Below are positions 3,183 to 52,400 of a stretch of DNA of 64,000 bases, one piece after another. Numbering within the stretch: position 1 is the first letter of the stretch; each line of letters starts with the position of its first letter. The stretch covers positions 12,214,001 to 12,278,000 of the forward strand of contig NC_092672.1 in NCBI RefSeq assembly GCF_964355755.1. The letters are read 5' to 3'. The stretch comes from Antedon mediterranea. Its lineage: Eukaryota; Animalia; Echinodermata. The translations under genes were made by a program, and so were the position numbers. The notes under the pieces were generated by a model. That model worked only from the letters and a program-made list of their open reading frames with translations. It had not been told where the DNA came from and searched no databases.

Positions 3183-3712
3183 CTAAGCATTGTATTCTAA
3201 CTTTTTAGCAGGAACAGTCATGTTATTCTGATTTAAAAATGCAATAAATGATTGCAAGTTATCCTCCTTTAGAATCCCCCTTTGTTCAAGATCTAATATC
3301 ACAGTCCATTGGTTGTTACTTTGTTTTTTTAGAACACTTTTCAAACGGATGAGATCTCTTGTATTTTCTTTCGAAAGTGCGTCACCAAACTGAATTAGGT
3401 GTTGTCGATATGTTGAGAAGGAGGTGATAAACTGGTTGGTTTTATCAAATTTCTCCTTTAAGAGTTTGTTGACCTCCAGAACACCATTTGTACCAGTGAC
3501 ATTAATTGCGTCAACAATAACTTTAACGTTTGTACTGGTAAGATGGCCAGATCGTTTCAATAGGTTGAAGAAACGTATGCAGTCAGCATCCTGCAAATCA
3601 TTGTAAGGTGTTATCAGATCTTTGCATAACACCTTCAGTTTATCAATTGAGCCATGTTCATCATACCAGCTCGATATGTTTACCACGATTTTTTCAAACT
3701 CTTCGGATGATC
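3183..3712 (-). CDS. Terminal exon encoding a tandem death-effector-domain (DED-DED)-like module
   Basis: Acceptor ttttacag|GA. Second half FSTYRQHLIQFGDALSKEN...LDLEQRGILKEDNL resembles the caspase-8/cFLIP DED2 pattern (SxYR..L..I.E.....LD....E....L...L). First half FEKIV..IS....IDKLKVLCKDLI...FFNLLKRSG.L resembles DED1. Judged by eye, no HMM run. Confidence 0.75.
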
Positions 3713-6700
3713 CTGTAAAAAAGAAAACCGAAAACAATTACATTTAGTAGGCCTGTTAAGTGACCCAATCCTTCAAATTGTGATAACATTCTGAGACTTT
3801 GCACAGTTATTCATTTTGGTGTCAAAAATATGAAATGGAAGGGTTGCACAAAATTTGGTCAGGGGAAAGCCGCCATTTTGGATTTCAAAATGGCGGACCC
3901 AAATTGTTCACTTTTCAGGTATATCTCTGCTAAATAGGCACCTAGAGTTCTGAATTTAGGTGCAAATTATATGGTAATGGGGTCACCAAACATATTGGTA
4001 TAACTAACATTTTAATTGCATGGCGGCCATTTTGGATTTCAAAATGGCGGACTTCAAATTTTCACTTTTTAGGTATATCTCTGCTAAAAAGGCTCCTAGA
4101 GTTCTGATTTTAGGTGCAAATTATATGGTAGTGGGGTAACCAAACATACTGGTATAACTAACATTTTGATTCCATGGCGGCCATGTTGGATTTCAAAATG
4201 GCGGATTTCAAATTTTTATTTTTCAGGTATATCTCTGCTAAAAAGGCACCTAGTGTTCTGATTTTAGGTGCAAATTATATGTTAATGGGGTCACCAAACA
4301 TATTGGTATAACTAACATTTTGATTGCATGGCGGCCATTTTGAATTTCATAATGGCGGACTTAAATTTTCACTTTTCAGGTATCTCTGCTAAAAAGGTAC
4401 ACAGAGTTCTGATTTTAGGTGCCAATTATATGGCACCTAAACATATTGGTATTTAACTGACAATTTTATTGCATGGCGGCCATTTTGAATTTCAAAATGG
4501 CGAACTCAAAATGTTTCAGTACGGTACCTACAGTTATAATTTTAGGTACAAAGTATAATATAGTTTTGAGGTCAACAAACATATTAGTATAACGTCTTTG
4601 ATTGCATGGCGGCCATTTTGAATGTAGCTCAACCCGTACTGGCTTTACACTATTTGTTTATGTTCATAATTACATGCATTTAACACGGACACTTATTGTA
4701 GGTCACAATTTCCCTGGCAACCACACAGCTCTGTACATCGTAAATCACTCTTTCTGCATTTACAGCATCCAAGATCACAGTCGGTGTGTCCACAGCGAAT
4801 TAAAACCTTTGTGACATCTGAAAGTTCCGGCAATGAACTCCAAGCTGGACTAAATTTGTTGCCGTCCTTTCTCGATCCCCAGTTCGCTGGGTCCTGCTCA
4901 ACCCTGAATGCATCTAGACAGTCGTACCACTTCCTGGCTTCCGTTTCACATGTTCTCTTAATGCCGCAGATGTTGGGGGATATTTTCAATAGTCTTTCTC
5001 TTGTTGTAAAAAGATATCGTCTTGCATCATAATGTTCTGCAGTAGACATAGTTACAACAAACTGTTCTAGATAATCTGTGTCTGTTTCACTAACATGCCC
5101 TACAGGCAATGACATCCTCTCAAAAACTGGAGTCATACATGGCATCTTTTTCAAGGTCTCGTTAAATGTAGCTTTACCTTTTCCTTAAACAGATGAAGTT
5201 CTATCACAACCGCTAATGGTATGAAAGAACAAGTAAGCGGCTGATGCATGTGATCCAAGAGAAGAAGCAATCTCGTGTATTGTGCTTTGTGCTTTCCCAC
5301 TCCAAACTCGATCCGAAGCTCGTGGATGCCAGGTATTCTGTGGAAAGCTGACAACAACATCACTGTGTACAGTCTTGACAATGCGTGGACAATTTCAGCG
5401 GGAAGTTTAACGTAAACAAACATACGTTCATCTGCCTCTTCTATGTTACATGGCATTAGCCATTGTATATTTACTGGTTTGTTACAGCTCTGTCTCCCAC
5501 AGACCCTACAAACATTCCGTGATTTGTGCCAATGTTCTCTACTACTTCAGTTACAATAAATGAAAACAACTCTGGTTTGTTGTCATCAAATCTAAAAAAT
5601 GTCGTCCAATTGTTGGGCATGCTCCCGCACGACCCTCCTCCTTACACCAGAGACTCGGTTTGAACGCGTACCAGACTTTAAACTGTCGTTAAAATAAAAA
5701 AACAAATCTAGTCGTGTCACTGATCGAAGTTGATGGTTGTATGACACTTGATATATACTCAACTCAATGAATGTCTTCGAATCATTTCGCCTGAGCATAT
5801 TGATTATTGCTGGTCCATCTAACACCTTGGCAGCAACTAATGGTGCTTCATTTTGTCATACAACCATATATAGACCATCAACTTCAATCAGTGAGGTGAC
5901 CAGATTCTGTTTTCGATAGATACTTTAACGACGGTTTAAAGTCTAGTACGCGTTCAAACCGCGGCTCTGGTGTAAGGAGGGGCGTCAAAGCCAGTGGGAG
6001 CATGCCCAACAATTGGACCACATATTCGAGATATGATGACAACAAATCAGAGTTGTTTCATTAATTGTAACTGAAGTAGTAGAGAACATTGACACAAATC
6101 ACGGAATGTTTGTAGGGTCTGAGAGAGACAGAGCTGTAGCAAACCTGTCTGTAAATATACAACCGCTGATGCCATGTAACATAGAAGAGGCAGATGAACG
6201 TATGTTTTTTCATGTTAAACATGCCGCTAAAATTTTTCCGCGCATTCTTGTCAAGACTGTAGACAGTGATGTTGTTGTTATTTCATTGTCAACTTTCCAC
6301 AGAATACCTGGCATCCACAAGATCGAGTTTGGAGTGGGGAAGCACTTGAAGTATATCTCAATACACAAGATTACTTCTCTTTGATCACAAGCATCAGCCG
6401 CTTACTTGTTCTTTCATTCCTTTAGCAGTTGTGATACAACTTCATCTGTTCAAAGAAAAAAATTTGAGACGATGTCATTGTCTGTAGGGGATGTTAGTGA
6501 CAGATTATCTAGAACAGTTTGTTTTAACTATGTAGAAAGAAGGTAAATGATGCAAGACGATATCTTTTTACTACAGACTGTTGAAAATATCCCCCCAACA
6601 TCTGCGGCATTAAGAGAACATCTGAAACGGTCTGTTCTACAAGCCAGAAAGTGGTAAAACTGTCTAGATGCATTCAGGGTTGAACAGGACCCAGCAAACT

Positions 6701-24700: not shown

Positions 24701-27700
24701 TCGTGCATTCTGAAGAATGATTTTCATTTAAAAAATGCCTTATTTTTCATCATTTTCAGCACTTTTATGCAGTTAATATGCGCATTTTGTCATTTTTAAC
24801 ATGCTCGTATAGCGTTATTTTAAGTCGGAACGAACTCAAATTCGGTGAATGTACTAAGAATGGTGAGTAGAATGGGATTTCTACAAAAAATTTGTATTTT
24901 TACCCTTTTTAAGAATCGCGTGCTCAAAAACGCATTTTTGCGCAGTAATTTTTTGAAACACGCAAATGGCCTAAATTGATTAAAACTTGATTTTGAGCTT
25001 TTTAAATTTTGAACGCGCGATTTTACGCGCATGACCCTACGTGCGCGTGCGTTTTTACTTGCCAATATTTTTACCCTTGACCTGAAGTTTACGTGTAATA
25101 AATTTCATTAATATGTGATAAAGAATTATGGAGATATGATTGATAATGTGATTTCACAAAATGGCGTATAAATGACGTCACGGATGAGTGATCACGCTGA
25201 AAAGCTTATTAGGACTAAGTTAAAGTATTTGAAAGACATTGTGAAATTTTGGTAATCATTGACATTAAACTTTTTTAGATATTTGTTACACAAAATAGTG
25301 CCCAGAAACAATAATAACAATAAAGATTTGATACAATAACAATAGGTGATCATTTTATTCTAAATGATCGCCTAATAATCAAACCTTCCACTGAAGACAT
25401 AGAGTCAGAGGATATAGAACATTCGGAATCAGATATCGGTGAAGTTGAAACTGCATCATGTAAATGGAATTTGATTTCAGTTGACGTCATTGTTTCCACC
25501 TCTGTTGTGATTTGTTCAGGCGTTTTCGGGGATGTTCCTGCAATTCATTCAAATATATTTTTCAGACAAGTATGTAAATATATTAAGATGGCTATAATGT
25601 CACTATTAAGTCTGTTTCTTAACTTGGTTGCATTATATATCACCAATACACTTTGTTTAGTATTAAAAATACCCTTATAGTAATAAAAAATGTGGTTAAT
25701 ATTCATCATACCTGTTTTGTCTAGATCCAAGGAGGAGATTGCTGATGATTCCTGTATGGAATCAGATTTAGATGTTGACATATCTGTCCTTCCTTCACCT
25801 TCATGCATTTGTTCCTTTGTTACCTGTGTTGCAATTTTTTCTGCAAGTGTATCTTCCCGTATTTTCTTGTTAAGCTCTATAACTGTAAAAAAAAAGGTAA
25901 GTTGAAATAAGGTTGAACGGTACACATCATAGAGATAAATTAAAAGATTAAAATTAAAGAAATAAGATATATCATCAAATCATCATAATCACCTGTAAAT
26001 AACATACATATATGTATGTCATTTATAGACCAAATTATAGACCAAAATGAATTTTTATGTATCTAATAAAAATATTATTTCCAATGTACCTTACTGGTAC
26101 GATTTTACCTTTATTACTATTTTTATATAGATACTATTTAAATTGTATACACAAATGGGCCAAAGCAGGCATTAATGCGCATGTTGAAGGAAGAAGAAAG
26201 AAAGAGTTTCAGCACACTTTGAACGAAAAGTTAATGTGTCATTTGGTATGGTTGAATTCTTATTTTCAAACTTACCATCGATATCTTCCTTCTTCCACTT
26301 GTCACAGTCTTTTCCAATTGCTTGAAACAATGTCGTTGTAATAGCAATACCATCAGTAGAGGGTTCGTTGGATTTAAATCTATAATAATAAATAATGAAC
26401 TCCAAAAGGTTTAATGAAAGTAGAATATATCCAATAGTTCCTCTTAAAATATTAATATATTTCGAATAAAAACAAAGTGAAGATCACAAGTAAATTAATG
26501 AGCATATGCTTCATACTTCTTAGAGATATTTGAAACAAACTTGAAACTTCAGCAGCAGCATTTGCATCAGCATCGTGGTCGTCGTTCTCGCCGTCACCAT
26601 CACCCTCAATGTCACCGTTATCATCATCATCATCAATCGCCATTATAATCACCATCATTATTATTATTCGAAAAGGAATGACAACCCAAAACTTCAGGTA
26701 TCAACTATATATAATAAGAACCTCACTAATGTCAATTTCTGTATTTTAATGAATAATTATATATTTGAACACAAATAAGCACTTTATCTATTGTAATGGT
26801 AATGAACTCCAAAAGGTCGGATATAAAGAAAATAGAATGTATCCAATAGTTCATCTTAAAATATGAATATATTTAAAATAAAAACGAAGTAAAGATCACA
26901 AGTAAATAAGCAAATGCTTCATACTTCTTGGAGGTATTTAAAATAAACTGGAACCTTCAGCAGCAGAATTTGCATAAACAGCGTCGTCGTTCTCGCAGTC
27001 ACCATCACCATCATCTTTATAAGCATCAGCATCATCACCATCATCATCGCCATTATAATCATCATTATTATTCGAAAAGGAATGAAAACCCATTAATCAA
27101 AGATGAAACTTCAGGTATCATAAGAAGATAAAAACATCACTAATGCCAATTTCTGTATTTTTATGAATATTTATAGATTAAAATACTTAGCACCACACTT
27201 ACTATAAACAAGAAAACCAAGCAACTCTTTAAATGTTATCAGTTGCATTAGAGATACTTATGAAAAAAATATAAGGTTTTCAAAGAACAAAAGATTGATT
27301 TTAATATATATATCAGAAAATATTATTTTCTGATAAGGAATGTTATGCCATGACTATTATAGAGAACATGAATACACGATTAGAAATAAATGAGAACTCT
27401 ATTATATATAATATATTGTAATGGTAAAAACACCATTCAACTTGTATTACATGCTGTATATTGATGAAGACCATGTATATTTTATTGGTGCATCTTATAA
27501 AATAACTATGTTCTTTTGTTACCTTTGTCCAAGCATGGCCTTTACACAGCTAGTTTTTCCAGCACCTTCTTTCCCTAGAAACATACATCTTGAATTTACA
27601 ACTGCAATCTCACCATTTTCAAGTTCATTTTGAAATGATCTAATGGCGCTCTCACCTCTAGCTAATATTTCAACTGGAACTAAATTGCAATTAAAATAAG

Positions 27701-30700
27701 TGCAAAATATACAAAAACAAATACAAATATTTTGAATAAATTCAAAGCCATAGTTTTAAAAATGTCATTATGACAGCTAATCTTCGTCACATTCGTACAG
27801 TTCAAAGGTTCAGTACAATGTTAAATATGTGTCATTATTAATACACAGTTTAATATTCATGATGCAAAACTCAATCAAAGTGTATTAATACAAACTTACT
27901 GTCAAGTAACTTCAATATATTATTTTTCTTTTCTTTGGAGATATGACTATTATCCTTCAAAGCAGATGCTGGTGTTTGTCCTCGCTATACAAAAAATTGT
28001 ATTAAAGTATTATCCACTGTTACTTTACTAATCTATATATACATTTACGTAAGGGAAAAATCGGTAAATCTCGCCTTACTTCTAGAATTTTTACTCGATG
28101 GTATATAAAGTTGGTTCGTACTTTCGGTACTGATTTTAACCACCTTATGTAACTCTGTTTACTAATTTAAATTGAGTTAGATAATTATTTATTGATGATT
28201 AAAGCGAATTTACGATTTGCCCCGAATAGGTGTTTTTCACAAATTGTTTTACATTATATAAACACATATACAAATAAAATTTATTAATGACAGTTGCTTC
28301 TCAACGTTTGTATTAATTAATAATGTAATTACAAAAAAAATATAAACGTCGAGTGATGTATCGTTACATGTACTGTACTTCAATCGACTATGAGGGTGAC
28401 AGTTTCAACAAAGTATTAAATCGCAATGTTTTAATGTATTTAGTGGTATATTATTGTAAAACATGAAAACAATTAATATTTCGTTGCTAAATGGATAAAG
28501 AATATATTATAAAATTGTTCCTCTTTGCACTCATCCTCTTTTTCCATCCCTCAACCCTAATTTTACCTACAAAACACAAATTAAGTTTGTTTAAATTTGA
28601 CTCAAACAATTGGTCTCAATTTGTGACAAGTTTTTCTTTCGAAAGTAATTCACAGGGTGCTAATTTTAGTTGAGTACATAAATCACCGTTTTTATTTATT
28701 TCGTTATTATATTGTCCTGTGGTACGTACATTTGAAATCGCCAGTTTTTTTAACGCTGAAATTACTATGTATTCGAGAAGCATCTGTGGACGACCTAGAT
28801 GCGAGCGAAGCGAGTAAACTAGTAATTTACATAATCCGGATTGTAATAAACACATTCATAAGCTAATAGTGTGCACACGTTAATATGACACAATCTGAGT
28901 ACCTTTGCACTAACAAACAACAATACTAACTGCTCTACCATTTAATGTTTATTGTGATTGAATACACTTAGTCTTTAAAATCTCTCAAAACCCATATTTT
29001 GAATTTTTAATTGTCTAAATTTTTCTGTCTATGTAAAGCGCATTAAGGCTTTCAGCATAATGCGCTATATCAAGTACCAGTTATTATTATTATTATTAGT
29101 AGTAAAAATGCTATTGAAAAAAATATTATAAAAGAATAGTCGATACTGATTAAATGTACATGTTAATTATCGCATCTATGAGAATTTACCACCACTAGCA
29201 GCAACCCGTGCTCCGCATTGTCTTTGTCGACTTTAATATATGATTATATACTAATTCGCATGGGATGAGTAAGTATCATATAAGCGCACTCTTCCCTCAT
29301 AAAACGCCATGGATTTTGTTATACACCAAGTATTCCTTCAATTTTAAGTAACTATGAGCTACAAAATGAAAGCAATACTGGATATGGGACTTTACGAAAA
29401 TGGAAAAATTGTGCTGTGTGAATAAGATGATGCGCGCAATAACATAACAAAAGTATAAAATGGCGAACTATATTATTTTGGGTGTTTTTCGTGGTGTATT
29501 AATTATTATTTTGATACATTGAAATAAAAAGTGAACAAAAATGGACGGAGTAGAAAGTGCATGAGATTAAAAGATTTTAATGAAGTATTGGAATAAATCA
29601 ACACAAAAAGTAGTCGAAATTTGACGATGCGCTGACACAAACTATTACTTTTTGGGTGTATTTTTTCTTTGAGACGTCAATTACTGCTATTGTTTGCCTT
29701 TTTTAGTGTTTATCCTTAAAATTCAGGAAAGTGACATAGCCTATCGTGTGCGGCCCATCAATAAACATCAGTGTGCCAAATGTGAGCACTTACCGTTCAG
29801 TGGTTTTGGAAGAGATACATAAAATAAAAAAATTTAGTAGCATTAATGTAGATGCTAACATAATGGCTTTAAACAATTGGCGCCCTTTCTGATATTATTT
29901 GTCTCCATCAAGATAATGGTTACTGTGTATTAGTTAACACAAGATGTGTAATATTTTAAGTTGATAGATACTCCTAATCAAAATAAGAGTATACCTTGGA
30001 TATAGGGGTAATGGTTTGCTTAATAAGCACAATTTAAAAATGCAAATGCAATGTTGCTGCATTAATTGACGGTACCTTGTTTCTTGCTTTAAGTGATGCT
30101 CCGTGGGCTATGAGACTGTTCACTATTTCTATATTACCACTCGTGCCAGTCCTAACGTGTTCATGTAGCGGTGTGTTTCCCTTCTGGAAAGCAGAAAGTT
30201 GTATGTATAATAATATACATTTAACACTTTAGATACTAGAACTAAAGTTTAAACAAATTTAATATTGTATTCGTATCCTACAATTATAACAAGCAATTAA
30301 CTACTACATCTAATGTATTGTATATTTTGCTTCTCGTGGGCTACTCGTCTTTCAGTAGGTAACTTCGATGATCATCCCTGCCAAATTGCCAGGACTTGCG
30401 ATTATACAAGTACAATTATTTAAACTCTGGTGGCAACTGGAAATGCGTCTGGCAGATGGACAGCCGGGAATGAGTCCAACGGATGTGAAGCATATATGTC
30501 TATCGATTATAGAATGAAAGTTAGATGATAAATCTGAATTAGGGTAAAAAATTGACTTCAGTAATGTAAACGGGGTCCCATCGTTTTATTACTTTTTATG
30601 AAATCATACACATAAGGGCCATTATTGGTTCGGCATCATAGTCCGCAAGGTCTATGGTCAAGAAATTGTTAAGTAAATGGAGTATTTTGTTAATTGTCTA

Positions 30701-33700
30701 CGATAGACCACATTATAACAGTACTGTAAATAATACAACTAGTTGATTTCAATTGGGACGTGGAGAGGTGTTAGCAATGAACATACTTTTGAAAGTATTG
30801 GTATTACCGTCTTTGATAAATAAATAACTTTTTACACAATGAAAATAAATTAAACAAACACAAGGTTTGTTTATACGGGAGCTCATTTAGATTAACTTGT
30901 ATTGCTAACTAAAACGAAATAATAACATTAATAATTGTTTTAATCATTATAAGAGCAATTTACATTGTTTGTTGCTGTGATGAATGCTCCGTGGGCTAGG
31001 AGCCTGTTCAATATCTCTATATTACCACTGCCAACCTGAACGTGTCCATGTAGCGGTGTGTTTCCATCCTGGAAAGAAGAAAGTTAGATTAAACTTGACG
31101 CATTTTTTTTAAAGAATACATAGTATTATATTACATATTTATCCTTTTCTATATTTCATTTTGTAGTTTATTGAGAGTGACTGTAAATCATAAAGAAGAC
31201 ATGGTTTTAAGAAAATAATACAACTTGCTAATTTTAATTATTATAATACAGAAGGGTTAGCAATGAACACATTTTAAAAGTATTGATTTAGCGTATTGTT
31301 CAATCTAAAATGCTACAGCTACACTATTTTTAATATATTTTAAATTATATTTTTGGTTTGATAATAACTATACATTTTTTCCAATGAAAAACACATTAAA
31401 TAAACGAATCTAGGGTTTGTTTATAATGGTAGGTAATTTAGATTAATTTATAGTAACTAAAGCGAATAATTACGTTAATAATTTTTAAATCATTTTAAAA
31501 GAGTAATTTACATTGTTTGTTGCTGTGATTGATGCTCCGTGAGCTATGAGACTGTTCACTATCTCTACATTACCACAACCATGCATAACGTGTGCATCTA
31601 GCGGTGTGGCTCCATGCTGGAAAGAAGAAATTAGATTAAACTTGACGCATTTTTTTAAAGAATACAGGTAGTATTATATTACATATTTATCCTTTTCTAC
31701 ATTCATTTTGTAATTATTTAATAGTGACTGTAAATTATAATAAGGTAATAAGAAAATAAGAAGAAAATAATACAATTTGCTGAGTTTAATTATTATAATA
31801 CAGATGGGTTAGTATTGAACACATTTTAAGAAAATAATAATACAACTTGTACTATACCCTGGAAAGAAGAAAGTTAGATTAAACTTGACGCATTTCTTTT
31901 AAAGAATACAGGTAGTATTATATTACATATTTATCCTTTTCTATATTTCATTTTGTAGTTTATTGAGAGTGACTGTAAATTATAAAGACATGGTTTTAAG
32001 AAAATAATATACTTGCTGATTTTAATTACTATAATACAGAAGGGTTAGCAATGAACACATTTTAAAAGTATTGATTTAGCGTCTTGTTCAATCTAAAATG
32101 CTACAGCTACACTATTTTTAATATATTTTAAATTGTATTTTTGGTTTGATAATAACTATACATTTTTTCCAATGAAAAACACATTAAACGAATCTAGGGT
32201 TTGTTTATAATGGTAGGTAATTTAGATTAATTTATAGTGTTAACTAATGCGAATAATTACGTTAATGATTTTTAAATCATTTTAAAAGAGTAATTTACAT
32301 TGTCTGTTGCTGTGATTGATGCTCCGTGAGCTATGAGCCTGTTCAATATCTCTATATTACCACTGCCAACCTGAACGTGTTCATGTAGCGATGTGTTTCC
32401 ATTCTGGAAAGAAGAAATTAGATTAAACTTGACGCATTTTTTTAAAGAATACAGGTATTATTATATTACATATTTATCCTTTTCTATATTTCATTTTGCA
32501 GTTTATTGAGAGTGACTGTAAATTATAAAGAAGACATGGTTTTAAGAAAATAATACAACTTGCTGATTTTAATTATTATAATACAGAGGGGTTAGCAATG
32601 AAAACATTTTAAAAGTATTGATTTAGCGTCTTGTTCAATCTAAAATGCTACAGCTACACTATTTTTAATATATTTTAAATTGTATTTTTGGTTTGATAAT
32701 AACTATACATTTTTTCCATGAAAAACATATTAAACGAATCTAGGGTTTGTTTATAATGGTAGGTAATTTAGATTAATTTATAGTGTTAACTAATGCGAAT
32801 AATTACGTTAATGATTTTTAAATCATTGTAAGAGTAATTTACATTGTTTGTTGCTGTGATTGATGCTCCGTGAGCTATGAGACTGTTCAATATCTCTACA
32901 TTACCACGGCCAAGCCAAACGTATACATGTAGCGGTGTGTTTCCATCCTGGAAAGAAGAAATTAGATTAAACTTGATACATTTTTTTAAAGAATACAGGT
33001 AGTATTATATTACATATTTATCCTTTTCTACATTCATTTTGTAATTATTTAATAGTGACTGTAAATTATAATAAGGTAATAAGAAAATAAGAAGAAAATA
33101 ATACAATTTGCTGAGTTTAATTATTATAATACAGATGGGTTAGCATTGAACACATTTTAAGAAAATAATAATACAACTTGTACTATACCCTGGAAAGAAG
33201 AAAGTTAGATTAAACTTGACGCATTTTTTTTAAAGAATACAGGTAGTATTATATTACATATTTATCCTTTTCTATATTTCATTTTGTAGTTTATTGAGAG
33301 TGACTGTAAATTATAAAGACATGGTTTTAAGAAAATAATACAACTTGCTGATTTTAATTATTATAATACAGAAGGGTTAGCAATGAATACATTTTAAAAG
33401 TATTAATTTAGCGTCTTGTTCAATCTAAAACGCTACAGCTACACGATTTTCAATATATTTTAAATTGTATTTTTGCTTTGATAATAACTATACATTTTTT
33501 CTACTAAAGAAAAACACAATAAACGAATCTAGAGTTTGCTTATAACGGGGGACAATTTAAATTCACTTGTAATGTTAACTAATACGAATAATTACGTTTC
33601 GATTTTTAAATCATTGTAAAAGAGTAATTTACATTGTTTGTTGCTGTGATTGATGCTCCGTGGGCTATGAGACTGTTCACTATCTCTACATTACCCTGGG

Positions 33701-36700
33701 CAGACCTAAAGTGTGTATGTAGCGGTGTGTTTCCAATCTGAAAAGAAGAAAGTTAGATTAAACTTGACGCATTTTTAAAGAATACAGGTATTATTATATT
33801 ACATATTTATCCTTTTCTATATTCATTTTGTAATTCATTAAGAGTGAATGTAAATTATATAGAAAAATCTAGTATTAAGAAAATAATAAAACTTGTTTAA
33901 AAAGTATTGATTTAGCGTCTTTTTCGATCTAAAACCCTACAGCTACACGATTTTCAATATATTTAAAATTGTATTTTTGCTTTGATAATAACTATATATA
34001 CAATGTTTCCAATGAAAAACACATTAAACGAATCTAGGGTTTGCTTATAACGGGAGATAATTTAAAATGACTTGTATGTTAAGTAATACAAATAATTACG
34101 TTAATGTTTTTTAAATCACTGTCAGTATAAGAGTAATTTACATTGTTTGTTGCTTTGACTGATGCTCCGTAAGCTATGAGATTGTTCACTATCTCTAAAT
34201 TACCACGGCCATACATAACGTGTTCATGTAGCGGTGTGTTTCCATCCTGAAAAGAAGAAAGTTAGTATTATTATATTTCATATTTATTCTTTTCTACATT
34301 CATTTTCTAATTCTAAGAGTGAATGTAAATTATATAGAAATACCTGGTATTAAAAAATGACTAACTGATTTCAATTAAGACATGCAGAGGATTTAGCAAT
34401 GAACATCATTTTGAAAGTATTGATTTTAGCGTCTTATTTAATCTAAAATTCGACAGCTGTACATGATGTTTAAATATCGTAAATTATATGGTGATGGTTA
34501 ATAACTATAAATAATATAATTTATTAAATTAATAAACATATTCCTACGCCTAGACATTTCGTTTAGATTCAAGTAAACTTTCATGAGTACTGAATTTGTA
34601 GATATTAGTCCGGTGGCAGGAGGGGGGAATCACCACCCGAAAGGGGACAAATTGCCATCCAACTTTTCTAGACTCGAATTTTCCGTAGATTACGAATATG
34701 GAAGGTAATCGATCAGGATAGGAAGCGTTTTCGAGATATAAGGGGTCAAAGTTCAAAATTGACCAATTACAACAATGTATTATGTATATGTATTATAACA
34801 AATTTATTGAAGCACAATTTGGTCTTTTATTACATTTTTATGATTATAAGTGTCTATTCAATCACCTTATGAAAAAAAAAATCCTTTGTGATTAAGGGTC
34901 AAATGTCAATATTGACCAATCATAGAACGTACCTATAAAACCAAATAAAAACTAATATTTAATCAAAATTGGATGTTTTCTCATTCTATTAATCAATCAT
35001 ACGCAATGTAAAAGAGCGAATACATCATTTCATCAGTTGACATAAGGTCAATTTCATCAGTTGACATAAGGTCAAACGTCAACATTTTAATACGCGTATT
35101 AGTTAACAAATAAATGCAAAGTTGTCCAAACTAGTATGATATTGATGGTTTTACAAGTAATCAAATTATTTGATTAGTAAAGTTATGTTATTTCATTATA
35201 ATTTTGATTAATATAATTATAATACTGTATTTAATCAAATCAGACTTCGATCAGGATAGGAAGCGAATAGGAAGAGATAAGGGGTCAAAGTTTAAAATTG
35301 ACCAATTATAACAATGTATTATATACATATGTATTATTAACCAGTTTATTAAAGTTCAATTTGGTCTTTTAATATATTTGTATGGTTATAGGTATTGTAT
35401 GGTGTTATTCAGTCGCCTTATAAAACAAATACTTTGCAATTAATGGTCAAATGTCAATATTAACCAATCACACAATTTGCATTTAAAACCAAATAAAAAC
35501 TAACATTTAAGACAAAATGTTATGTTTTATCATTCTGTTAAGACATCTATCAATCATACACAATCAAAAGAGCACATTTATCATTACACAAGTTGACATG
35601 GGTCAAAGGTCAACATTTGAACAAATGATATACTAAATAATGCAACTTTTCAAACTATGAGATCGATGTTCATAAATGTAATCACGTTATTTGATCAGTG
35701 AAGTTATGGTATTTTTATATTTTTTCTAGTGCGCATTATTTTAAATGTATTAATATAATACTGTAAAATAAATAATAAAATTAATATTATGACGATTAAA
35801 ATGTTATGATGTTAAAATGTTGCGCTGACCTTCAATGATTTGCCACTATACAGTTGCATTTATTAGGGCTACAATATTCGTCTTTGGAAAATAAACTACT
35901 ATTCATCAGAACCAGAGAATACAAATTCGTACAGGGTAGGGCATAGGCAGATCCAGGTGGCCAAACTCAATCCACAACTCACTACACAGACAGACCACAA
36001 TTTTTATATAGTTGTGCCCATACAGGAAAGAGTTTCCTGTATACAAAGGATTCTAAAATAACCCATGTGGATTTGCCCGAATGAACCCTCTAAGGACCCT
36101 TTTGGGATCTATATGTGGTGTGCTACATAAGGCCCTGTATTAGAAATTAGTATGGGGTAAATAGTTCATAGATGAACTATGGAATAAAACTAAATGTGCA
36201 CCCTCAATCTTTAAATAACATTTATGGATTTTCCCAAATGAACCCAAGGGCCGATCCTTCATGGACCTTTCGGGGTTCTCTATGTGGGGCTACAAGAAAC
36301 CCTATATTGGAAATAATGTATGTGGGGTGAAAATGTGGGTTCATAGAGATATAATAAATCCCTGTGCACCCTCGATCATCCATAAGGAATATTTTATGGA
36401 TTTGCCCAAATTAACCCAAGGGCCGGTCGTTCTCCATGGATGGACATTAAGCCCCATAATGGAAATATAAGGGGTGACACTGTGAGTTCATATAGACAGG
36501 CGTGGCCCATGAATTAAGCTGCCTGTGCACTCTCGATCCTTAAGAAAAATTTATGGATTTGCCCAAATTAACCAAAGGGCCGGTCCTCCATGGACATTAA
36601 GCCCCATAATGGATATTAATGGATGACACTGTGGGTTTATATAGACAGGCACAACCATGGAATAAAGCTGCCTGTGCACTCTCGATCCTTAAGGAACACT

Positions 36701-39700: not shown

Positions 39701-42700
39701 GGCCTAATACGATTCCATCTTCCTTTTTCTAGTTATAATATTCCTACCTAGTCTTAGTTTAGTCACAATGTGTCTATGTTTCTAATTTTAATTAAGTATT
39801 CTTCCATAATTCCAACATAATTTATATTGAATGCGTGTGAAATATTGGAGTTTATAGAGAGTGTATTAACCTATTATCTCATAGAATTGTGTCGTTCAAT
39901 AAGCCTCGCCTTTGTTTAAATTTTGAAATAAAAAATATTGTTGACCTGTTGAGCATGCCATGTTGCCAAATCCATTTATAGGCCTACATAATAAGTTTTA
40001 CATCATTCACCCAATTCGCTCATTTTGTTACGCTTTTCTATGTTGAAAATCGTAAAATTGTTTAATGATTTTTTTATAATCTATTTGGCTTACTCTCAGC
40101 CACTAACGAATTCAATTAATGATACTTTGAGTTTGGATAGGGAATTTTCGATATTCTCCTCTCACTGCATCACTTGGTGCAAAATTTTCTATTCCTAAAA
40201 GATATTTTTATTCTAAAATCAAAATATAATCCAAGTGGTATGAAGACATTGTTCATCTGCTGGAAAACTACAAGTCAGTCGATGCTACAAACTACAAGGG
40301 TTCGGAGAAGTCAAGCAGGCAGAAATGCATTATATCTCAGATGCTAGTGAAGTAGTATGTGGTCAATGCATGTATTTAAGATTGATGCCCTCATGATAAT
40401 ATTTCTTCTATTTCGATATCAAGTGTATGTAGCTAACCGGGTATACAGCAAATCAACGATGTACCTTCCATAGAAAACATCTTCTAATCCGAGTGATATA
40501 GTCAGTAGAGCCGTGCGTGCTAACAGTAAGCAATTGATTTGAGATACCGGATGGGTGAGTAGTTCTACACTTCTTCACCAGGTAGTTCTTAACAAACAAA
40601 GGCGGTTGGCCGAAATCGATGACGAATCGCGTATAACGTTGTTGCTTCAGAACTAAAATATATTCGCTCATTCCACACTAATGTTGACAAAGTTACTTCA
40701 GAATGGGTTTATGACAGATAAAATGAACTATAAATCACATTAAATGTATTGAATGTTCATTCCCCTTAGAGGAACCAACACGTAGTAAGGCATATTTTTT
40801 AGATATGCCTATCAAAGGTAAACTTAACAGTGATACAAAACACATGCAATAATTTAATATGAAAAGATTGGTGTAAATATTGCGAGGAGCCATGTACCGG
40901 CAGTATGTGTAACTGAGTTAATGATTATGTAATTGTTGTTGAAGATTATGCTCATCGGGAATAATTTGCATAAAATACCATGTTAGCCTACGTATATTAG
41001 AAATCTCACTAGCTAGTGTAGTTAGTTGAGACGATGCTATCGTCAGCTGCACGATTTTTAATATATTTTAAATTGTAGTTTTGCTTTGATAATAATTGAT
41101 TTTAATTATTATAATACAGAAGGGTTAGCAATGAACACATTTTAAAAATACTACTTTAGGCTCTTGTTCAATCTAAAACGCTACAGCTACACAATTTTTA
41201 ATATATTTTAAATTGTATTTTTCCTTTGATAATAACTATACACTTTTCCAAAGAAAAACACATTAAACAAATCTAGGATTTGCTTATAACGGGAGATAAT
41301 TCAAATAATTACGCTATGGATTTTTAAATAATTGTATAAGAGTAATTTACAATGTTTGTTGCTGTGACTGAGGCTCCGTTGGCTATGAGACTGTTGACTA
41401 TCTTTACATTATTCCTGCCAGACTCAAGGTGTTCATGTAGCGGTGTGTATCCATCCTGGAAAGAAGAAAGTTAGTATTATTATATTTCATATTTTTCTTT
41501 TCTACATTCATTTTCTAATTCATTAAGAGGGAATATAAATTATATAGAAATACCTGGTATTAAGAAAATAATGACTAACTGATTTCAATTAAGACATGCA
41601 GATTATTTAGCAATGATCATCAACAGCGTCTTGTTTAATCGAAAATTCGACAGCTGTACATGATGTTTAAATATCGTAAATTATATGGTGATGGTTAATA
41701 ACTTTAAATAATATAATTTATTAAATTAATAAACATATTCCTACGCCTAGACATCTCGTTTAGATTCAAGTAAACTTTAATGAATACTGAATTTGTAGAT
41801 CTGTATGTATTACCAAACCACCTTCAAAACATAATTGCAAATTCCAACAATACACTCTACGGTGAATTCTATAAATATTTTGTTATATTATTAATCTACT
41901 ATCCATCCCACCTTCATCCTACAATGAAAAAAAAAGTTACGTAATTCGTTTCTCCCATTTGCTATGAGGCTTTTGAATGCAAGCTATGTGTATGTATCGA
42001 GTTATATGACATTTGCCTTTTTATTATATTTGATGCATTTGTATTTTATCCTATAGGTGTCGTACTGTCTGTATTTTACCAATTTTGTTTTAACTACTAC
42101 GAATAATATCGTTAATGATTTTAAATAATAGTAAATCTCTTTCAACGCTACCAAACTGTATCAATAAAGTGTCGTACTGTCTGTATTTTACCAATTTTAT
42201 CATATGAAAAGATTGGTGTAAATATTGCAAGGAGTCATGTAACGGCAGTATATATTATATAATTCGCTGTCAGATGATACTTCACACTTGAAGTATCTAG
42301 GCATGATGAAGTGACCCCTAGACTTGACCTTAGCAATAAAATAAACTAAAGTGACTGATATGAAACACAGACTCTGTAACAAAAAAATAATATTTGTATT
42401 TGTAAAAAAATAAAAGAAACGTTTAATTATAACTCAAAAACCATTGTCTGACAGACAATTTAAGTATTGTTTGCTTTAAATTACATTTTTTCAGGTAAAA
42501 TAACTATTATGTGACAATAAAATGACACATATTCAAACACAAATTTGAAATAAAAAATATTTTTCAGAGGGACAATATATCTTTAAAACTGTTACGTCAA
42601 TAAGCGAGCAGCGTTTTTTGTAAGAAATATTTCTTGTAGATATGCCTATCAATGGTAAGCTTAACAGTGATATAAGACAACAAAACACATACAATAATTT

Positions 42701-43397
42701 AATATAAAAAGATTGGTGTAACTATTGCAAGGAGCCATGTAACGGCAGTATGTGTAACTGAGTTAATGATTATGTAATTGTTGTTGAAGATAAAAACCAT
42801 GTTAGCCTACGTATATTAGAAATCTCACTAGCTAGTGTAGTTAGTTGAGACGATTCATCGTTATTAAATGTATGTTATGTCATACTATTATACAAAAAAT
42901 TATCTCCATTGTGGCATGATTACACGCAATCTGTCTTTCTATTACGTTTTATCTCAACTCAAAGAAGTGGCAAGTGAGACCGTAGTTATAGTATAGAGTA
43001 GATTGTCTGTTTGTTATTGGTTCTTAGTAATGTTGTCATACATTATATAAACGTTTTCGTGTTTTTCACCCTTGAGGTTACCGTAAACATGGTGATTATT
43101 TATATCATATTCAAATTCAAATAAATATAGTTTCTATACCTTATCTACAGAGTTCACAAGATGTGGATATGTTTTACATATTTCTTCAATTTCTTCCAAA
43201 TCTCCATATCTTACAGTTCTTAGCAATACGTTTCTGGAAATAAAGAAGATAAAAATGAATCATGGCAAGAATACTCGGTCGATGATGTTAATATGTTTAT
43301 TTGTCATGTTTCTAAACAATAATAAATACAATTTTCTTTGAACTATTTAACATATTATACGTTTGTTGGATATAAAATATAAAGCTTACTTTGGCAT
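3183..43397 (-). CDS. Multi-exon ROCO-family gene: ANK repeats - Roc - COR - tandem DED (~1359 aa, 27 coding exons, no kinase)
   Basis: Hand-spliced exons in transcript order (+ coordinates): 43390-43397, 43140-43233, 41351-41455, 34142-34246, 33633-33737, 32843-32947, 32299-32403, 31512-31616, 30964-31068, 30076-30183, 27900-27984, 27523-27679, 26276-26379, 25712-25882, 25385-25537, 22273-22440, 21635-21849, 21129-21254, 15509-15703, 14995-15240, 13995-14189, 13689-13850, 13277-13579, 12644-12724, 12341-12548, 12061-12096, 3183-3712. All junctions are GT-AG, phases are compatible, total is 4080 nt with no internal stop. Motifs: TPLH ankyrins; PVEILARG; P-loop GKEGAGKTS; STDGI; WDYAGQ; LVATHMD; COR IPLKW/YLNDIGVIMY/FLVP; tandem DED. 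Small exons could be missed, and there is no transcript support. Confidence 0.85.
4693..5830 (-). pseudogene. Frameshifted C-terminal fragment of Academ protein (left arm)
   Basis: ORF pieces 5592-5825 (LDG.AII..L...SKTF; RLDL.F.....SLKSGTRSNR), 5151-5456 (EEADERMF) and 4693-5154 (P.NWG; Cys8). Confidence 0.75.
5924..6838 (+). pseudogene. Inverted second copy of the same Academ C-terminal fragment (right arm)
   Basis: Reverse complement of ~4740-5695, with deletions. ORF 6106-6384 reads EEADERMFFHVKHAA...VKTVDSDVVVI. Confidence 0.75.
7063..10065 (-). pseudogene. LINE ORF2 (AP endonuclease + reverse transcriptase), split by two frameshifts
   Basis: APE motifs HLNLRSL, ISETWL, GGGVAIY, VYRPP, VGDLN, PTR, IDLIF, SDH. 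RT motifs NYRPIS, NQSGFR, FLDLKKAFDTVDH, GVPQGSILGPLLF. One extra base breaks YADD (ctc ta[a]t gca gac gac, ~7902). A second frameshift lies near 9200. Confidence 0.92.
10118..10903 (-). CDS. LINE ORF1 protein (coiled-coil + L1-type RRM/CTD)
   Basis: Intact 261 aa with EQYSRRNCLIIQGI, IDRSHRLG, R.IIVKF, IYIHENLT and VWTQDGRI motifs, directly upstream of ORF2. Confidence 0.88.
   Translation of the reverse strand: MAGKNTRKGGKKDSGKECCELNTDTAPVIDVEPLTITVQNEISNIIKGNTSIFNDLAEEIVSIVKHQLIESITQIVTDAAIEAIRFELDDTKDRLSKVEQQVDNLQYELDEAEQYSRRNCLIIQGIEEKQGEITDNIVLDLFKKKLSVEVDKTCIDRSHRLGPKVKKNGRARGIIVKFSSYNVRNEVYRAKKKLKGSHIYIHENLTSKRSSLLRTVKQNYASVVSAVWTQDGRIHTIITGSNEKVVLSRTSDLKQLPKCKR
12341..15240 (-). CDS. 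COR-domain exons of the ROCO gene (14995-15240, 13995-14189, 13689-13850, 13277-13579, 12644-12724, 12341-12548)
   Basis: IPLKW...; AIAYLNDIGVIMY...V; LWKKL..EGILEEKLL.HLW; MKTFGLL; FLVPC; FLPDSVYNTLVV. These are typical COR-A/B motifs following Roc. Confidence 0.8.
14351..14557 (+). mobile_element. Short non-autonomous Helentron/HINE (DINE-1-like) element
   Basis: ttttaatcgcgtggacgcgactctata 5' palindrome, (GTCG)n microsatellite, subterminal cacgcgact, and ggccttgttt 3' end in T-rich flanks. Confidence 0.7.
15509..27679 (-). CDS. Roc GTPase-domain exons (G1 27523-27679; G2 26276-26379; G3 21635-21849; 21129-21254; G4 15509-15703) with a long low-complexity insertion
   Basis: SRCMFLGKEGAGKTSCVKAMLG; PSTDGI; TIWDYAGQLDYYITHR|FFLTNRVSYCVAFN; MFWIRSI...PPICLVATHMD. 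Confidence 0.9.
15866..19446. mobile_element. Non-autonomous PIF/Harbinger-like TIR element (~3.6 kb), probably with nested sequence
   Basis: TIR cgcccgtattcttaaacc.gactttagtcgtagt / actacgactaaagtccggtttaagaatacgggcg, flanked by TAA on both sides. No convincing ORF. Confidence 0.75.
19610..21013. mobile_element. Non-autonomous Academ-type element with long TIRs
   Basis: TAGTCCATGGG...CCCATGGACTA termini, 3-bp TSD TTA, TIRs of several hundred bp, and internal repeats of the arm sequence. Confidence 0.75.
23812..25376 (+). mobile_element. Non-autonomous Helentron-like element
   Basis: Starts aactagaatttaattcgtcactttgacgaatt (hairpin) followed by ataggtgat. Ends aataggtgatcattt...aaatgatcgcctaat (hairpin reusing the subterminal repeat). 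Confidence 0.55.
26390..27170. repeat. Intronic ~410-bp tandem duplication containing (CAT)n-rich microsatellite
   Basis: aatgaactccaaaaggt occurs at ~26393 and ~26801, and the following sequence stays collinear in both copies. Confidence 0.8.
28960..29098 (+). mobile_element. 3' end fragment of an L2-type LINE or related SINE
   Basis: tgtaaagcgcatt...aatgcgctatat stem-loop followed by a (TTA)n tail. Confidence 0.5.
29195..29852 (-). mobile_element. Non-autonomous Helitron
   Basis: Minus strand begins A|TC (29852) and ends gcggagcacgggttgctgCTAG|T (29195). This gives TC...CTAG termini inserted between A and T. Confidence 0.6.
30076..30183 (-). CDS. Ankyrin exon A8: KGNTPLHEHVRTGTSGNIEIVNSLIAHGASLKARNK
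   Basis: 108 nt, phase 0-0, ttccag| ... |gtaccg. Confidence 0.9.
30964..31068 (-). CDS. Ankyrin exon A7: DGNTPLHGHVQVGSGNIEILNRLLAHGAFITATNN
   Basis: 105 nt, phase 0-0, canonical splice sites. Confidence 0.9.
31512..31616 (-). CDS. Ankyrin exon A6: HGATPLDAHVMHGCGNVEIVNSLIAHGASITATNN
   Basis: 105 nt, phase 0-0. Confidence 0.9.
32299..32403 (-). CDS. Ankyrin exon A5: NGNTSLHEHVQVGSGNIEILNRLIAHGASITATDN
   Basis: 105 nt, phase 0-0. Confidence 0.9.
32843..32947 (-). CDS. Ankyrin exon A4: DGNTPLHVYVWLGRGNVEILNSLIAHGASITATNN
   Basis: 105 nt, phase 0-0. Confidence 0.9.
33633..33737 (-). CDS. Ankyrin exon A3: IGNTPLHTHFRSAQGNVEIVNSLIAHGASITATNN
   Basis: 105 nt, phase 0-0. Confidence 0.9.
34142..34246 (-). 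CDS. Ankyrin exon A2: DGNTPLHEHVMYGRGNLEIVNNLIAYGASVKATNN
   Basis: 105 nt, phase 0-0. Confidence 0.9.
34606..38178. mobile_element. Non-autonomous Academ-type element inside the ankyrin array, with an internal ~120-bp tandem repeat (~36050-37250)
   Basis: TAGTCCGGTGGCAGGAGGGG...CCTCCTGCCACCGGACTA termini, ~160-bp TIR, 3-bp TSD TAT. The duplicated intron at ~41795-41810 shows the empty site. Confidence 0.8.
38363..38769. mobile_element. Solo LTR (407 bp, 5-bp TSD GCAAG)
   Basis: TG...CA termini. Empty site ttttgaatGCAAGctatgtg at ~41971-41990. Confidence 0.75.
40230..40390 (+). mobile_element. Decayed BEL/Pao retrotransposon pol (RNase H) fragment
   Basis: Translates EMHYISDASEVVCGQCMYLRL, matching the BEL/Pao ELH.FSDAS..GYG.C.YLR motif. 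Confidence 0.55.
41351..41455 (-). CDS. Ankyrin exon A1: DGYTPLHEHLESGRNNVKIVNSLIANGASVTATNI
   Basis: 105 nt, phase 0-0. Flanking introns are homologous to those of A2. Confidence 0.88.
43140..43397 (-). CDS. First coding exons: MPK|NVLLRTVRYGDLEEIEEICKTYPHLVNSVDK (ankyrin N-cap)
   Basis: Exons 43390-43488 (ATG at 43397, preceded in frame by TAA) and 43140-43233. The sequence fits an N-capping ankyrin (L...V..GDLE.I......P.LVN..DK) and joins A1 in phase 0. Confidence 0.7.
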
Positions 43398-50370: not shown

Positions 50371-51239
50371 ATATAGGACTCTAAAACCAAACCGTACCCA
50401 ATTAGTTGATGATGTTACACATATTTTAAATACAGTAATAACTAAAACTATATTAATCTCTTTTCATGTTTAGGAACATGAATAAAGATCCAGAATCCTG
50501 GTCTTCACGCCGATCAGGTAATATGCCGGTATTGCTTTTGGACACAGAAATGGCCTACATTAAAGTTTAGCAAACAATTCTAACTACAAAGAAAGCAAAA
50601 TTAGATGAGGCTCTAGTTACTCTCCTCTCCACTTTTTACCTTCTAGATTTTGATTATCCAAAATGAAAAGAAGTAGGCCTCACTATCCTTTAATTTTAGT
50701 GATTTGTGATGAAGACACACCTGTACACTTGACAAAGGCTGTTGAATCATCATTAGTATACATTAATAAATTTAAAGACACCTAATAGTTTAAAGCCCAG
50801 GTGCGGGAGAAGAATTTTACGAAATTTGTATTTTACCATTTTAATGTTTTTAAGTTTTCTTTTGATGGCATTTTATTATTAATAAAAACAAGTTTGTTTT
50901 AAAGAAGTTGTATATATTATTGTACCTAATGTCATGTAAATTGTAGTTCTTAATGAAAATAACAGTATTGTTAATATTATGTTTTATAACATTCTTGAAT
51001 TTATTTGTTTAAGTAAAATATTACTTAAAATGAGTATTCATTTATCGTTCTTAAAATAAATTTTTAATGATTTATATTTTATAGAATTGTTGTTTCAAGC
51101 AATTTTTTTTCCAATATAAGTAAGAATTTACGAATTTTAATTTGATAGAATTCTTGTTTCAAGCAATACTTTTCTTAAAATAAGTAAACATTTACTGGTT
51201 TTTATTTGATAGACTTCTTGTTTACTTATTTTAAAAAAA

Positions 51240-52400
51240 GTTTTGCTTGAAACAAGAATTCTACAAATAAAAATCGGAATATTCTTACTTATTTAAAGAA
51301 ATATATTGCTTGAAACAAGAAAACTAAAAATATAAATCGGAATATTCTTACTTATTTTAAGAAAAATATTGCTTAAAACAAGAATTCTAAAAAATACAAA
51401 CCGGAATATTCTTACTTATTTTAAGAAAAATATTGCTTGAAACAAGAATTCTACAAATAAAAATCGAAATATTCTTACTTATTTTAAGAAATATATTGCT
51501 TGAAACAAGAATTCAAAAAATACAAATCGGAATATTCTTACTTATTTTAAGAAAAATATTGCTTGAAACAAGAATTCAAAAAATACAAATCGGAATATTC
51601 TTACTTATTTTAAGAAATATATTGCTTGAAACAAGAATATTAAAATTAAAAATCGGAATATTCTTACTTATTTTAAGAAAAATATTGCTTAAAACAAGAA
51701 TTCTAAAAAATACAAATCGGAATATTCTTACTTATTTTAAGAAAAATATTGCTTGAAACAAGAATTCTAAAAAATAAAAATCGGAATATTCTTACTTATT
51801 TTAAGAAATATTTTGCTTGAAACAAGAATTCAAAAAATACAAATCGGAATATTCTTACTTATTTTAAGAAAAATATTGCTTGAAACAAGAATTAAAGAAA
51901 TACAAATCGGAATATTCTTACTTATTTTAAGAAAAATATTGCTTGAAACAAGAATTCAAAAAATACAAATCGGAATATTCTTACTTATTTTAAGAAAAAT
52001 ATTGCTTGAAACAAGAATTCAAAAAATAAAAATCGGAATATTCTTACTAATTTTAAGAAATATCTTGCTTGAAACAAGAATTCAAAAAAATACAAATCGG
52101 AATATTCTTACTTATTTTAAGAAATATATTGCTTGAAACAAGAATTCTATAAAATACAAATCGGAATATTCTTACTTATTTTAAGAAATATCTTGCTTGA
52201 AACAAGAATTCAAAAAAATACAAATCGGAATATTCTTACTTATTTTAAGAAATATATTGCTTGAAACAAGAATTCTATAAAATACAAATCGGAATATTCT
52301 TACTTATTTTAAGAAATATCTTGCTTGAAACAAGAATTCTATTTTAAAAAATCGATAAATTGTTACTTATTTTAAGGCAGATACTGCTTAAAACAAGAAT
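51240..52400. repeat. 63-bp tandem repeat (~18 copies), preceded by inverted copies at ~51080-51230
   Basis: Unit ttgcttgaaacaagaattcaaaaaatacaaatcggaatattcttacttattttaagaaaaata. Confidence 0.92.

Follow-up and report, generated by a model that had tools for sequence, protein, structure and literature searches.

We analysed a 64,000-nt stretch of Antedon mediterranea DNA (contig NC_092672.1, positions 12,214,001 to 12,278,000; hereafter the window), AT-rich animal DNA with a GC content of 0.26-0.40. The subject of this report is an array of ankyrin exons within a gene of about 40 kb on the minus strand, in which eight exons of one repeat each (A1 to A8) are followed by Roc and COR exons and a DED-like tail (Table 1). 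Two of the repeat exons, A6 and A4, lie in a tandem higher-order repeat, where their first 20 codons (the variable patch) differ strongly and their scaffold codons and abutting introns are identical or nearly so.

The eight repeat exons are all in phase 0, with AG and GT flanks and a polypyrimidine tract; seven are 105 nt long and A8 is 108 nt. Because the exons are symmetric in phase and flanks, any unit could be gained or lost without a break of the frame. The encoded unit of 35 residues (36 in A8) is a length variant of the canonical 33-residue ankyrin unit with its G-x-TPLH motif and is still an ankyrin repeat. TPLH itself is present in six of the eight exons, TSLH in A5 and TPLD in A6, where GATPLD occupies the place of the G(N/Y)TPLH found in six of the seven other exons. 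The repeat exons are 82-90% identical to A4 at the DNA level. The introns of the array, from A8-A7 through A2-A1, are all homologous (71-96%), which indicates that the whole array grew through serial duplication of an exon-plus-intron unit.

The initial annotation had proposed a recent duplication of a two-exon block with near-identical introns and strongly diverged exons, and had read this as strong positive selection or as short-tract conversion of the patch. The counts behind it were borne out. The A6 and A4 exons differ at 12 of 105 nt; all 12 differences fall in codons 1-20 (60 nt) and 11 of them in codons 1-14 (42 nt), whereas scaffold codons 21-35 are identical (0/45). The abutting introns, 31617-31860 and 32948-33191, align without gaps and differ at 3 of 244 nt. 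By Nei-Gojobori counting, 11.0 of the exon differences are non-synonymous and 1.0 is synonymous, and they change nine residues (A6/A4: H/D, A/N, D/H, A/V, H/Y, M/W, H/L, C/R and V/L). The other exon pair of the repeat, A7 and A5, shares the QVGS patch as annotated (HVQVGSG in both); these two differ at 3/60 in the patch and at 5/45 in the scaffold half (30964-31008 in A7). In a sliding window of 60 nt, divergence between the two copies peaked at the A6/A4 patch with up to 12 differences, and a second peak of 12-13 differences was found at 32172-32261.

Since each repeat is its own exon, the codons being tested lie within a few bases of introns that can serve as a neutral clock. Against this clock, the excess in the patch was significant: 12/60 differences compared with 3/244 in the abutting intron (Fisher P = 3.7e-7), with 28/994 in the remaining columns of the young part of the repeat, defined below (P = 6.2e-7), and with 21/959 in piecewise multiple alignments (P = 7.8e-8). 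When the differences of the young part were permuted 20000 times, a 60-nt maximum of 12 differences had P = 0.00015. Scaffold codons and introns in this part are about 2-3% apart, and the A6/A4 patch 20%. The changes also followed the reading frame. Counted as minimum changes in codons 1-14, they fell on codon positions 1, 2 and 3 as 11/7/1 among the four young exons, A7, A6, A5 and A4 (chi-square P = 0.018), and as 17/11/2 among all seven 105-nt exons (P = 0.003). Selection was gauged by pairwise proportions of non-synonymous (pN) and synonymous (pS) differences, the sequences being too few for codon site models. For A6/A4, pN was 0.242 and pS 0.069, the latter compatible with the intron level (P = 0.29); pN exceeded pS in the patch of 21 of 21 exon pairs, and in the scaffold the two were similar. 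Both of the annotated readings thus gained support, the excess being confined to codons 1-20, following the frame and falling on positions that vary across the family.

These positions were located with an entropy profile of 14 repeats (seven from the window, six from P0001 and one from P0003, two related proteins described below), in which the last two rows differ in length and inflate the later columns. Entropy peaked at 2.5-2.8 bits at positions 1, 8, 11, 12 and 14 and was at most 1.6 bits elsewhere; mean residue identity was 0.54 over positions 1-14 and 0.77 over positions 15-35. In the DARPin repeat, the variable positions are numbers 2, 3, 5, 13, 14 and 33. HMMER aligned P0001 with ankyrin-1/2 and with DARPins at E values of 1e-64 and below, and in the alignment with DARPin chain 6mol_A its positions 1, 3 and 11-12 match sites that differ between that chain's own repeats; the same alignments place two extra residues after helix 1 of the Antedon repeat. 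The variable positions (1, 8, 11, 12 and 14) overlap in part with those of the DARPin repeat, which form the paratope (PMC8683736). Other subfamilies behave in a similar way: in another relative, P0014, the units are on average 74% identical, and their differences, length changes included, are concentrated just after TPLHxYL.

The duplication itself proved to be less simple than annotated. The two copies (30964-32298 and 32299-33632) do align as a repeat of 1335 and 1334 nt, with 69 substitutions in 1326 ungapped columns of a global alignment; the repeat is a mosaic and not uniformly young. A single clean 1334-nt duplication was ruled out by the older right-hand end of copy 2 (about 230 nt) and by the older scaffold half of A7, whose age is indicated by its 5/45 differences from A5. 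The young block comprises about 31009-32070, paired with 32343-33405, and holds 40 substitutions in 1054 columns, 12 of them in the A6/A4 patch. To place the right-hand edge, the A3-A2 intron was put into a multiple alignment with the a-type introns, of which there are four (31069-31511, 31861-32298, 32404-32842 and 33192-33632); 23 sites are private to 33192-33632. All 23 lie at or beyond alignment column 219 (about 33405), and many match the state of the A3-A2 intron. This clustering indicates that intron 33192-33632 is recombinant, young on the left and old on the right, which explains the second divergence peak. The young block falls short of the 1334-nt period, which calls for one or more additional events; one of them may have been, for example, a conversion of about 230 nt or more over the donor-side intron and scaffold of A5.

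The annotated intron control holds as well, with a wider reach than was proposed. The near-identity of the introns is not unique to A6/A4, and the control applies to six exon pairs. The four a-type introns are 5-7/235 apart in every pairing, and among the donor-side introns of A6, A5 and A4 the differences amount to 2-5/195; intron similarity is star-like and not particular to the higher-order repeat. The 244-nt piece of older-type intron that abuts A6 and A4 (the b-piece) is found in these two units only and is joined head-to-tail to a complete a-type intron at 31860/31861 and 33191/33192. This composite intron is most simply explained as the scar of a lost exon whose unit was later duplicated. 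When old and young exons were compared at synonymous sites, 0 of about 25 had changed in A4/A2 and in A5/A2, although the corresponding introns are 12-16% apart; such low synonymous divergence among A2, A4 and A5 hints at homogenisation at the exon level or at constraint on the exon sequence.

Table 1. Features of the ankyrin-Roc-COR gene and of the tandem repeat within it (window coordinates)
Feature	Position	Strand	Basis or remark
Exon ahead of the repeats, ends ...EEIEEICKTYPHLVNSVDK	43140..43229	-	tblastn, 84% identity to P0001 residues 5-35
Exon A1	41351..41455	-	frame and splice sites
Exon A2	34142..34246	-	frame and splice sites
Exon A3	33633..33737	-	frame and splice sites
Higher-order repeat copy 2: A5, a-type intron, A4, b-piece, recombinant a/old intron	32299..33632	-	
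Recombinant intron, a-type to about 33405, then older type	33192..33632	-	right edge of the young block
b-piece adjoining A4	32948..33191	-	3/244 from the A6 copy; unique CG>TA at 32977-32978
Exon A4, DGNTPLHVYVWLGRGNVEILNSLIAHGASITATNN	32843..32947	-	frame and splice sites; Pfam Ank match of the enclosing open reading frame
A4 variable patch, codons 1-20	32888..32947	-	
a-type intron A5-A4	32404..32842	-	
Exon A5, QVGS patch	32299..32403	-	frame and splice sites
Higher-order repeat copy 1: A7, a-type intron, A6, b-piece, a-type intron	30964..32298	-	
a-type intron part, b-piece to A5	31861..32298	-	
b-piece adjoining A6, 244-nt older-type acceptor-side intron copy	31617..31860	-	84-86% like the a-type
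Exon A6, HGATPLDAHVMHGCGNVEIVNSLIAHGASITATNN, 105 nt	31512..31616	-	phase 0, AG/GT flanks
A6 variable patch, codons 1-20	31557..31616	-	11 of the A6/A4 differences in 31575-31616
a-type intron A7-A6	31069..31511	-	
Exon A7, QVGS patch	30964..31068	-	frame and splice sites
Exon A8, 108 nt, 36 codons, final full repeat	30076..30183	-	97% identical to P0003 residues 16-50
Capping half-repeat exon, RGQTPASALKDN...	27901..27984	-	tblastn and splice sites
P-loop exon of the Roc GTPase, GKEGAGKTS	27510..27680	-	91% identical to P0003 residues 79-135
Roc and COR exons (first six)	26277-26381, 25692-25883, 25386-25538, 22283-22450, 21602-21850, 21129-21254	-	tblastn with P0003
Roc and COR exons (last five)	15509-15703, 14992-15246, 13674-14189, 13265-13570, 12345-12548	-	tblastn with P0003
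Last exon, 182-residue DED-like tail	3186..3731	-	Pfam DED 31.5 bits (below cut-off) and tblastn

The relatives of the gene were sought with its exons and products. Of the 10 candidates from a protein search with the A4 exon, one was significant: P0001, annotated as 'uncharacterized protein [Antedon mediterranea]', which shares both the 35-residue repeats and the P-loop exon sequence with the window gene. Among 316 retrieved proteins the 35-residue repeat type occurred only in P0001, and searches with P0001 as the query were dominated by generic ankyrins. Further relatives from Antedon mediterranea were P0003, P0014, P0015, P0122, P0129 and P0131; others came from Anneissia japonica. Residues 15-1110 of P0003 aligned with the window exons, A8 through the last, at identities of 40-97%. 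Against 1.84 billion representative proteins, P0003 gave 3141 matches with E <= 0.001, of which 698 had E <= 1e-10 and 103 had E <= 1e-30.

In Pfam scans, the open reading frame (ORF) that bears A4 (32789-33004, minus strand) matched Ank (PF00023) with 32.6 bits (cut-off 21.1), and P0001 did so with 103.8 bits. Single window exons gave no Pfam Roc match; the Roc motifs GKEGAGKTS and DYAGQ are visible in the window ORFs, and P0003 scored 41.2 bits for Roc (cut-off 27), 55.6 bits for COR-A and 24.9 bits for DED. The window exon 13980-14189, a gene fragment, reached 26.5 bits for COR-A, below the cut-off of 35.3, which P0014 (63.5 bits) and P0015 (62.2 bits) exceeded. In the latter two proteins ankyrin, Roc and COR-A were all above their cut-offs and DED was below (26.7 and 31.6 bits). 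The tails of all five family members examined scored between 24.9 and 32.6 bits for DED (PF01335), under the cut-off of 35.9, the last exon of the window gene, also a fragment, giving 31.5 bits. A PDB profile search with the C-terminal tail returned nothing relevant (top match calmodulin, E 0.71), and an AlphaFold2 model of the tail from a five-row alignment was unusable (mean pLDDT, the predicted local distance difference test score, 45.9). Pfam scans of the window ORFs and the family proteins found no kinase domain, and no NACHT or NB-ARC central NTPase, in whose place Roc-COR stands.

A second gene of the family ends in the same window, with tail exons at 61354-61899 and 63448-63651 on the minus strand; its 184-residue last-exon ORF is 95% identical to 3186-3737. 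The family is therefore tandemly arrayed, and the repeat exons discussed here belong to it, a tandem family of proteins with ankyrin repeats, Roc, COR and a DED-like tail. Judged from this domain content alone, the product could be a cytosolic sensor in which recognition by the ankyrin repeats is linked to a GTPase switch (Roc-COR) and to output through a death fold.

Regarding the origin of the A6/A4 differences, we favour, at about even confidence, the explanation that they arose after the duplication, under selection for amino-acid change on a predicted ligand-binding face. More broadly, selection for new binding specificities is the likely cause, perhaps with some help from short-tract recombination. 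Under this explanation, units would multiply through unequal crossing-over in near-identical introns and exons, new copies would diverge at the helix-1/loop and beta-turn positions predicted to contact a ligand, and purifying selection would keep the scaffold. It is consistent with change in situ that both copies changed at codons that vary across the family and that, from an A2-like patch, single-base steps lead to all 12 differences. Moreover, no 11-mer of either variable core occurred elsewhere in the 64-kb window, and neither MHGC (A6) nor WLGR (A4) was found in the 316 retrieved proteins. The other exons of the window were ruled out as patch donors, as none shares an 11-mer of the variable cores.

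Several points weigh against this explanation. The donor search was limited to the 64-kb window and a small number of annotated proteins. A rate some ten times that of the intron over 14 codons, as the differences imply, is extreme for stepwise fixation. Within the A6/A4 patch, the contrast between non-synonymous and synonymous change was not significant on its own (11/45.5 vs 1/14.5, P = 0.26), so that it is the introns, taken as the neutral class, that carry the case. The sister pair A7/A5, seemingly just as old and at 3/60 in the patch, was not above background (P = 0.16) and was below the 12/60 of A6/A4 (P = 0.025). A6 alone alters two otherwise invariant scaffold residues, N3A (two base changes) and H7D (the H of TPLH), and it also carries the only synonymous A6/A4 change. 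Private to A4 is a CG>TA change that lies 30 nt inside the intron; the six other window copies have CG there. In sum, 14 differences are clustered without interruption in 89 nt (31559-31647), flanked by 61 nt and 166 nt of identity, which gives the look of an imported tract, and the array is demonstrably recombinogenic.

The same features would be accounted for if the patch had been swapped by recombination, either through a conversion tract of about 40-90 nt from a paralogous or allelic exon or through a crossover that joined alleles already different. We consider this a plausible alternative, although one that falls short of an even chance. Selection would still maintain diversity at the level of the family, and no local burst of substitution would be needed; by the allelic route, the 2-3% divergence of the flanks would be heterozygosity. 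The 89-nt cluster takes in the synonymous change, the two conserved scaffold residues and the intronic CG>TA, as a swapped tract might. Recombination in the array is further indicated by the change of type near 33405 in intron 33192-33632, by A5, which combines an A7-like patch (3/60) with a scaffold unlike that of A7 (5/45), and by the three donor-side introns, which are 2-5/195 apart whatever their place in the higher-order repeat. Paralogues are at hand, with the second gene tail at 61354-63651 and related proteins from a 39-Mb contig, and the disparity between A7/A5 (3/60) and A6/A4 (12/60) also fits a swap. On the other side, no donor was found among the eight window exons or the 316 proteins, and single-base steps from an A2-like patch suffice, at variable codons in both copies; neither of these objections is strong. 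Change in situ, import and the allelic route differ in where the changes occurred; each requires that selection favour or preserve diverse patches in some part of the family.

It is improbable, in our view, that the patches are old and their flanks young, with introns and scaffold homogenised by concerted evolution and selection removing the events that overwrote a patch. The star-like intron similarity among the four units would suit this scenario, as would the synonymous sites unchanged between A2 and either A4 or A5. However, the b-piece and its junction are confined to the A6 and A4 units, for which duplication of a unit that already carried the b-piece is simpler, and several precisely placed tracts would be needed to homogenise both sides yet spare a patch of 42-60 nt.

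Causes blind to the reading frame, whether a local mutational hot spot or the decay of a disused exon, are very unlikely: TPLD in place of TPLH in A6 and a contig from the public run X5 that joins 32299 to 31068 (A5 to A7, without A6), which could stem from a paralogue, speak for disuse, but neutral decay cannot outpace introns and the patch is 7-10 times faster, third codon positions are avoided (11/7/1), and A6 and A4 keep open frames with intact AG/GT. The avoidance of third positions likewise disfavours sequencing error. Least credible of all is an assembly or polishing artefact, for although the region is a tandem repeat with stretches 97-99% identical, in which a collapse or mis-polishing might occur, 28 differences in the young block beyond the patch show that no collapse has taken place, the patch differences are structured by codon, and a 173-nt contig of X5, a second sample, matches 33012-33183 of the copy-2 b-piece with 0 other letters.

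Public sequencing data were compared with the window in eight runs from three studies, with none listed as an RNA run; they contained 0.09-0.42 of the sampled words, in contigs of 31-480 nt. At 98% likeness, the listed contigs of X5, X6 and X8 end at 31569-31576, the border between scaffold and patch, and have no bearing on the presence, age or copy number of either patch. In the bin of the A4 patch (32880-32928), X6 and X8 reach a depth equal to the spill-over of one neighbouring contig, and the summed depths are not copy numbers; the coverage of the patch region by X1 is ambiguous, being judged among the pieces listed only (137 more exist). Joints of X5 contigs at exon borders (31068/32299, 30180/32844 and 30182/33632) fit spliced RNA, in a run that is only guessed to be RNA and with conserved exon ends that leave the identity of the exons ambiguous. 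The joint between an A5-type and an A7-type exon could reflect skipping of A6, another allele or a paralogue. A contig of X6 (organism B) over 29982-30218, matched at a likeness of at least 92%, has 11 other letters, six of them in 30142-30153, which are codons 11-14 of A8. The remaining five are spread over the other 225 nt, four of these in the flanking introns. The contig may be an orthologue or a paralogue, and it presents patch-focused divergence in another repeat.

The window also holds mobile and repetitive elements. A non-LTR retrotransposon lies in the last long intron of the gene (7066-10912, minus strand; Exo_endo_phos 61.9 bits, RVT_1 90.2 bits); its endonuclease and reverse transcriptase are split over three overlapping ORFs, indicating frameshifts, and an upstream ORF of 264 residues has no Pfam match. 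Downstream of both DED-like exons there is a shared 34-nt satellite (2226-2503 and 59913-60601), and further tandem repeats occupy 59025-59880 (39-nt unit, 21.9 copies, 98% matches) and 10-1032 (71-nt unit, 14.4 copies, 97% matches). Between the two ROCO genes, on the minus strand, are a MULE transposase ORF (48767-49198, 35.8 bits) and a FLYWCH zinc finger ORF (52567-53283, 41.6 bits), with a 63-nt repeat of 18.6 copies at 51222-52400. Intronic arrays of 149-154-nt units in 3-4 copies (85-88% matches) at 3872-4518, 11260-11748 and 36361-36997 are probably dispersed repeats.

Exon shuffling in the leucine-rich repeat (LRR) ROCO proteins of brown algae was reportedly described by Zambounis et al. 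in 2012. According to Teng et al. 2024 (PMC11378527), each LRR of these proteins is encoded by one 72-bp phase-2 exon, and the genes display alternative splicing, shuffled exons and positive selection at four sites of the concave face. The Antedon gene resembles the algal one in being a Roc-COR protein with an N-terminal array of one short in-phase exon per repeat, whose exons duplicate and shuffle and diversify at a few sites on the binding face, and both are proposed immune receptors. The two differ in that the Antedon repeats are ankyrin (105 nt, phase 0) and not LRR, the host is an animal, and a DED-like tail follows COR. A second parallel is offered by the fungal NOD-like receptors (NLRs) of high internal conservation (the HNWD het-d/het-e WD40 proteins, and ANK and TPR types), whose repeats, as described in PMC11761791, are 80-100% alike but for a few hypervariable codons. 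The same paper invokes unequal crossing-over, documents polymorphism in repeat number, and mentions one such LRR NLR in a sea urchin (PMC11761791). The fungal and Antedon systems share repeats that are nearly alike except for a handful of hypervariable codons on the interaction surface, with unequal crossing-over and recombination between paralogues invoked for both. In contrast, the fungal repeats lie within one exon, so that there is no intron control, and the central module is a NACHT or NB-ARC NTPase in place of Roc-COR. Since the repeats, central module and host differ, the Antedon array is set apart from both systems: it works like them and is a member of neither, being built of ankyrin and not LRR, on Roc-COR and not NACHT/NB-ARC, in an animal.

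In domain order, the gene is also close to the DAPK1-type ROCO proteins, which consist of ankyrin repeats, Roc, COR and a death domain; Pfam names PF08477 'Roc, domain of DAPkinase'. The likeness lies in the ankyrin repeats N-terminal of Roc-COR and in the death-fold module at the C-terminus (here DED-like and below the cut-off). Unlike DAPK1, no kinase domain was found, the tail is DED-like and not a death domain, and the family is expanded, with the 103 representatives found at E <= 1e-30. With DARPins (PMC8683736), the array has in common a constant scaffold and variation confined to the beta-turn and helix-1 positions of the paratope, and it differs in that its repeat is natural, has 35 residues, two of them additional ones behind helix 1, and varies at positions 8 and 14 as well. 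PMC8195603 describes how death-fold proteins have undergone lineage-specific expansion in marine invertebrates, among them echinoderms. In the literature searched, from which most subscription journals were missing, no paper was found that deals with crinoid ankyrin-ROCO families of this kind or with one-repeat-per-exon ankyrin arrays.

Read as a whole, these results tentatively suggest that feather stars carry a large tandem family of ankyrin-Roc-COR-death-fold receptors in which one-repeat-per-exon arrays act as a cassette system, the units being duplicated, lost and recombined through near-identical introns and a paratope of 14 codons turning over at about ten times the neutral rate; we regard this joint claim as possible and no stronger. 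If it is true, the array would be the third independent case of diversity based on repeat cassettes, after the fungal NLR repeats and the brown-algal LRR-ROCOs, and the first animal case built on ankyrin repeats and a ROCO switch. Diversity could be increased further if the symmetric exons were alternatively spliced. An intron clock beside the repeat codons is rare among repeat-based receptors and absent from the fungal and most plant examples; here it reads as a 7- to 10-fold excess of change in about 14 codons of an otherwise frozen repeat. The locus is therefore a tractable place in which to weigh point substitution against short-tract conversion as the source of new specificities. Should the family serve as an innate immune sensor or a cell-death sensor, a role to which its Roc-COR and DED-like parts point, it would be a natural counterpart to DARPin libraries and would bring to the expanded immune repertoires of echinoderms a receptor type based on ankyrin repeats and driven by ROCO.

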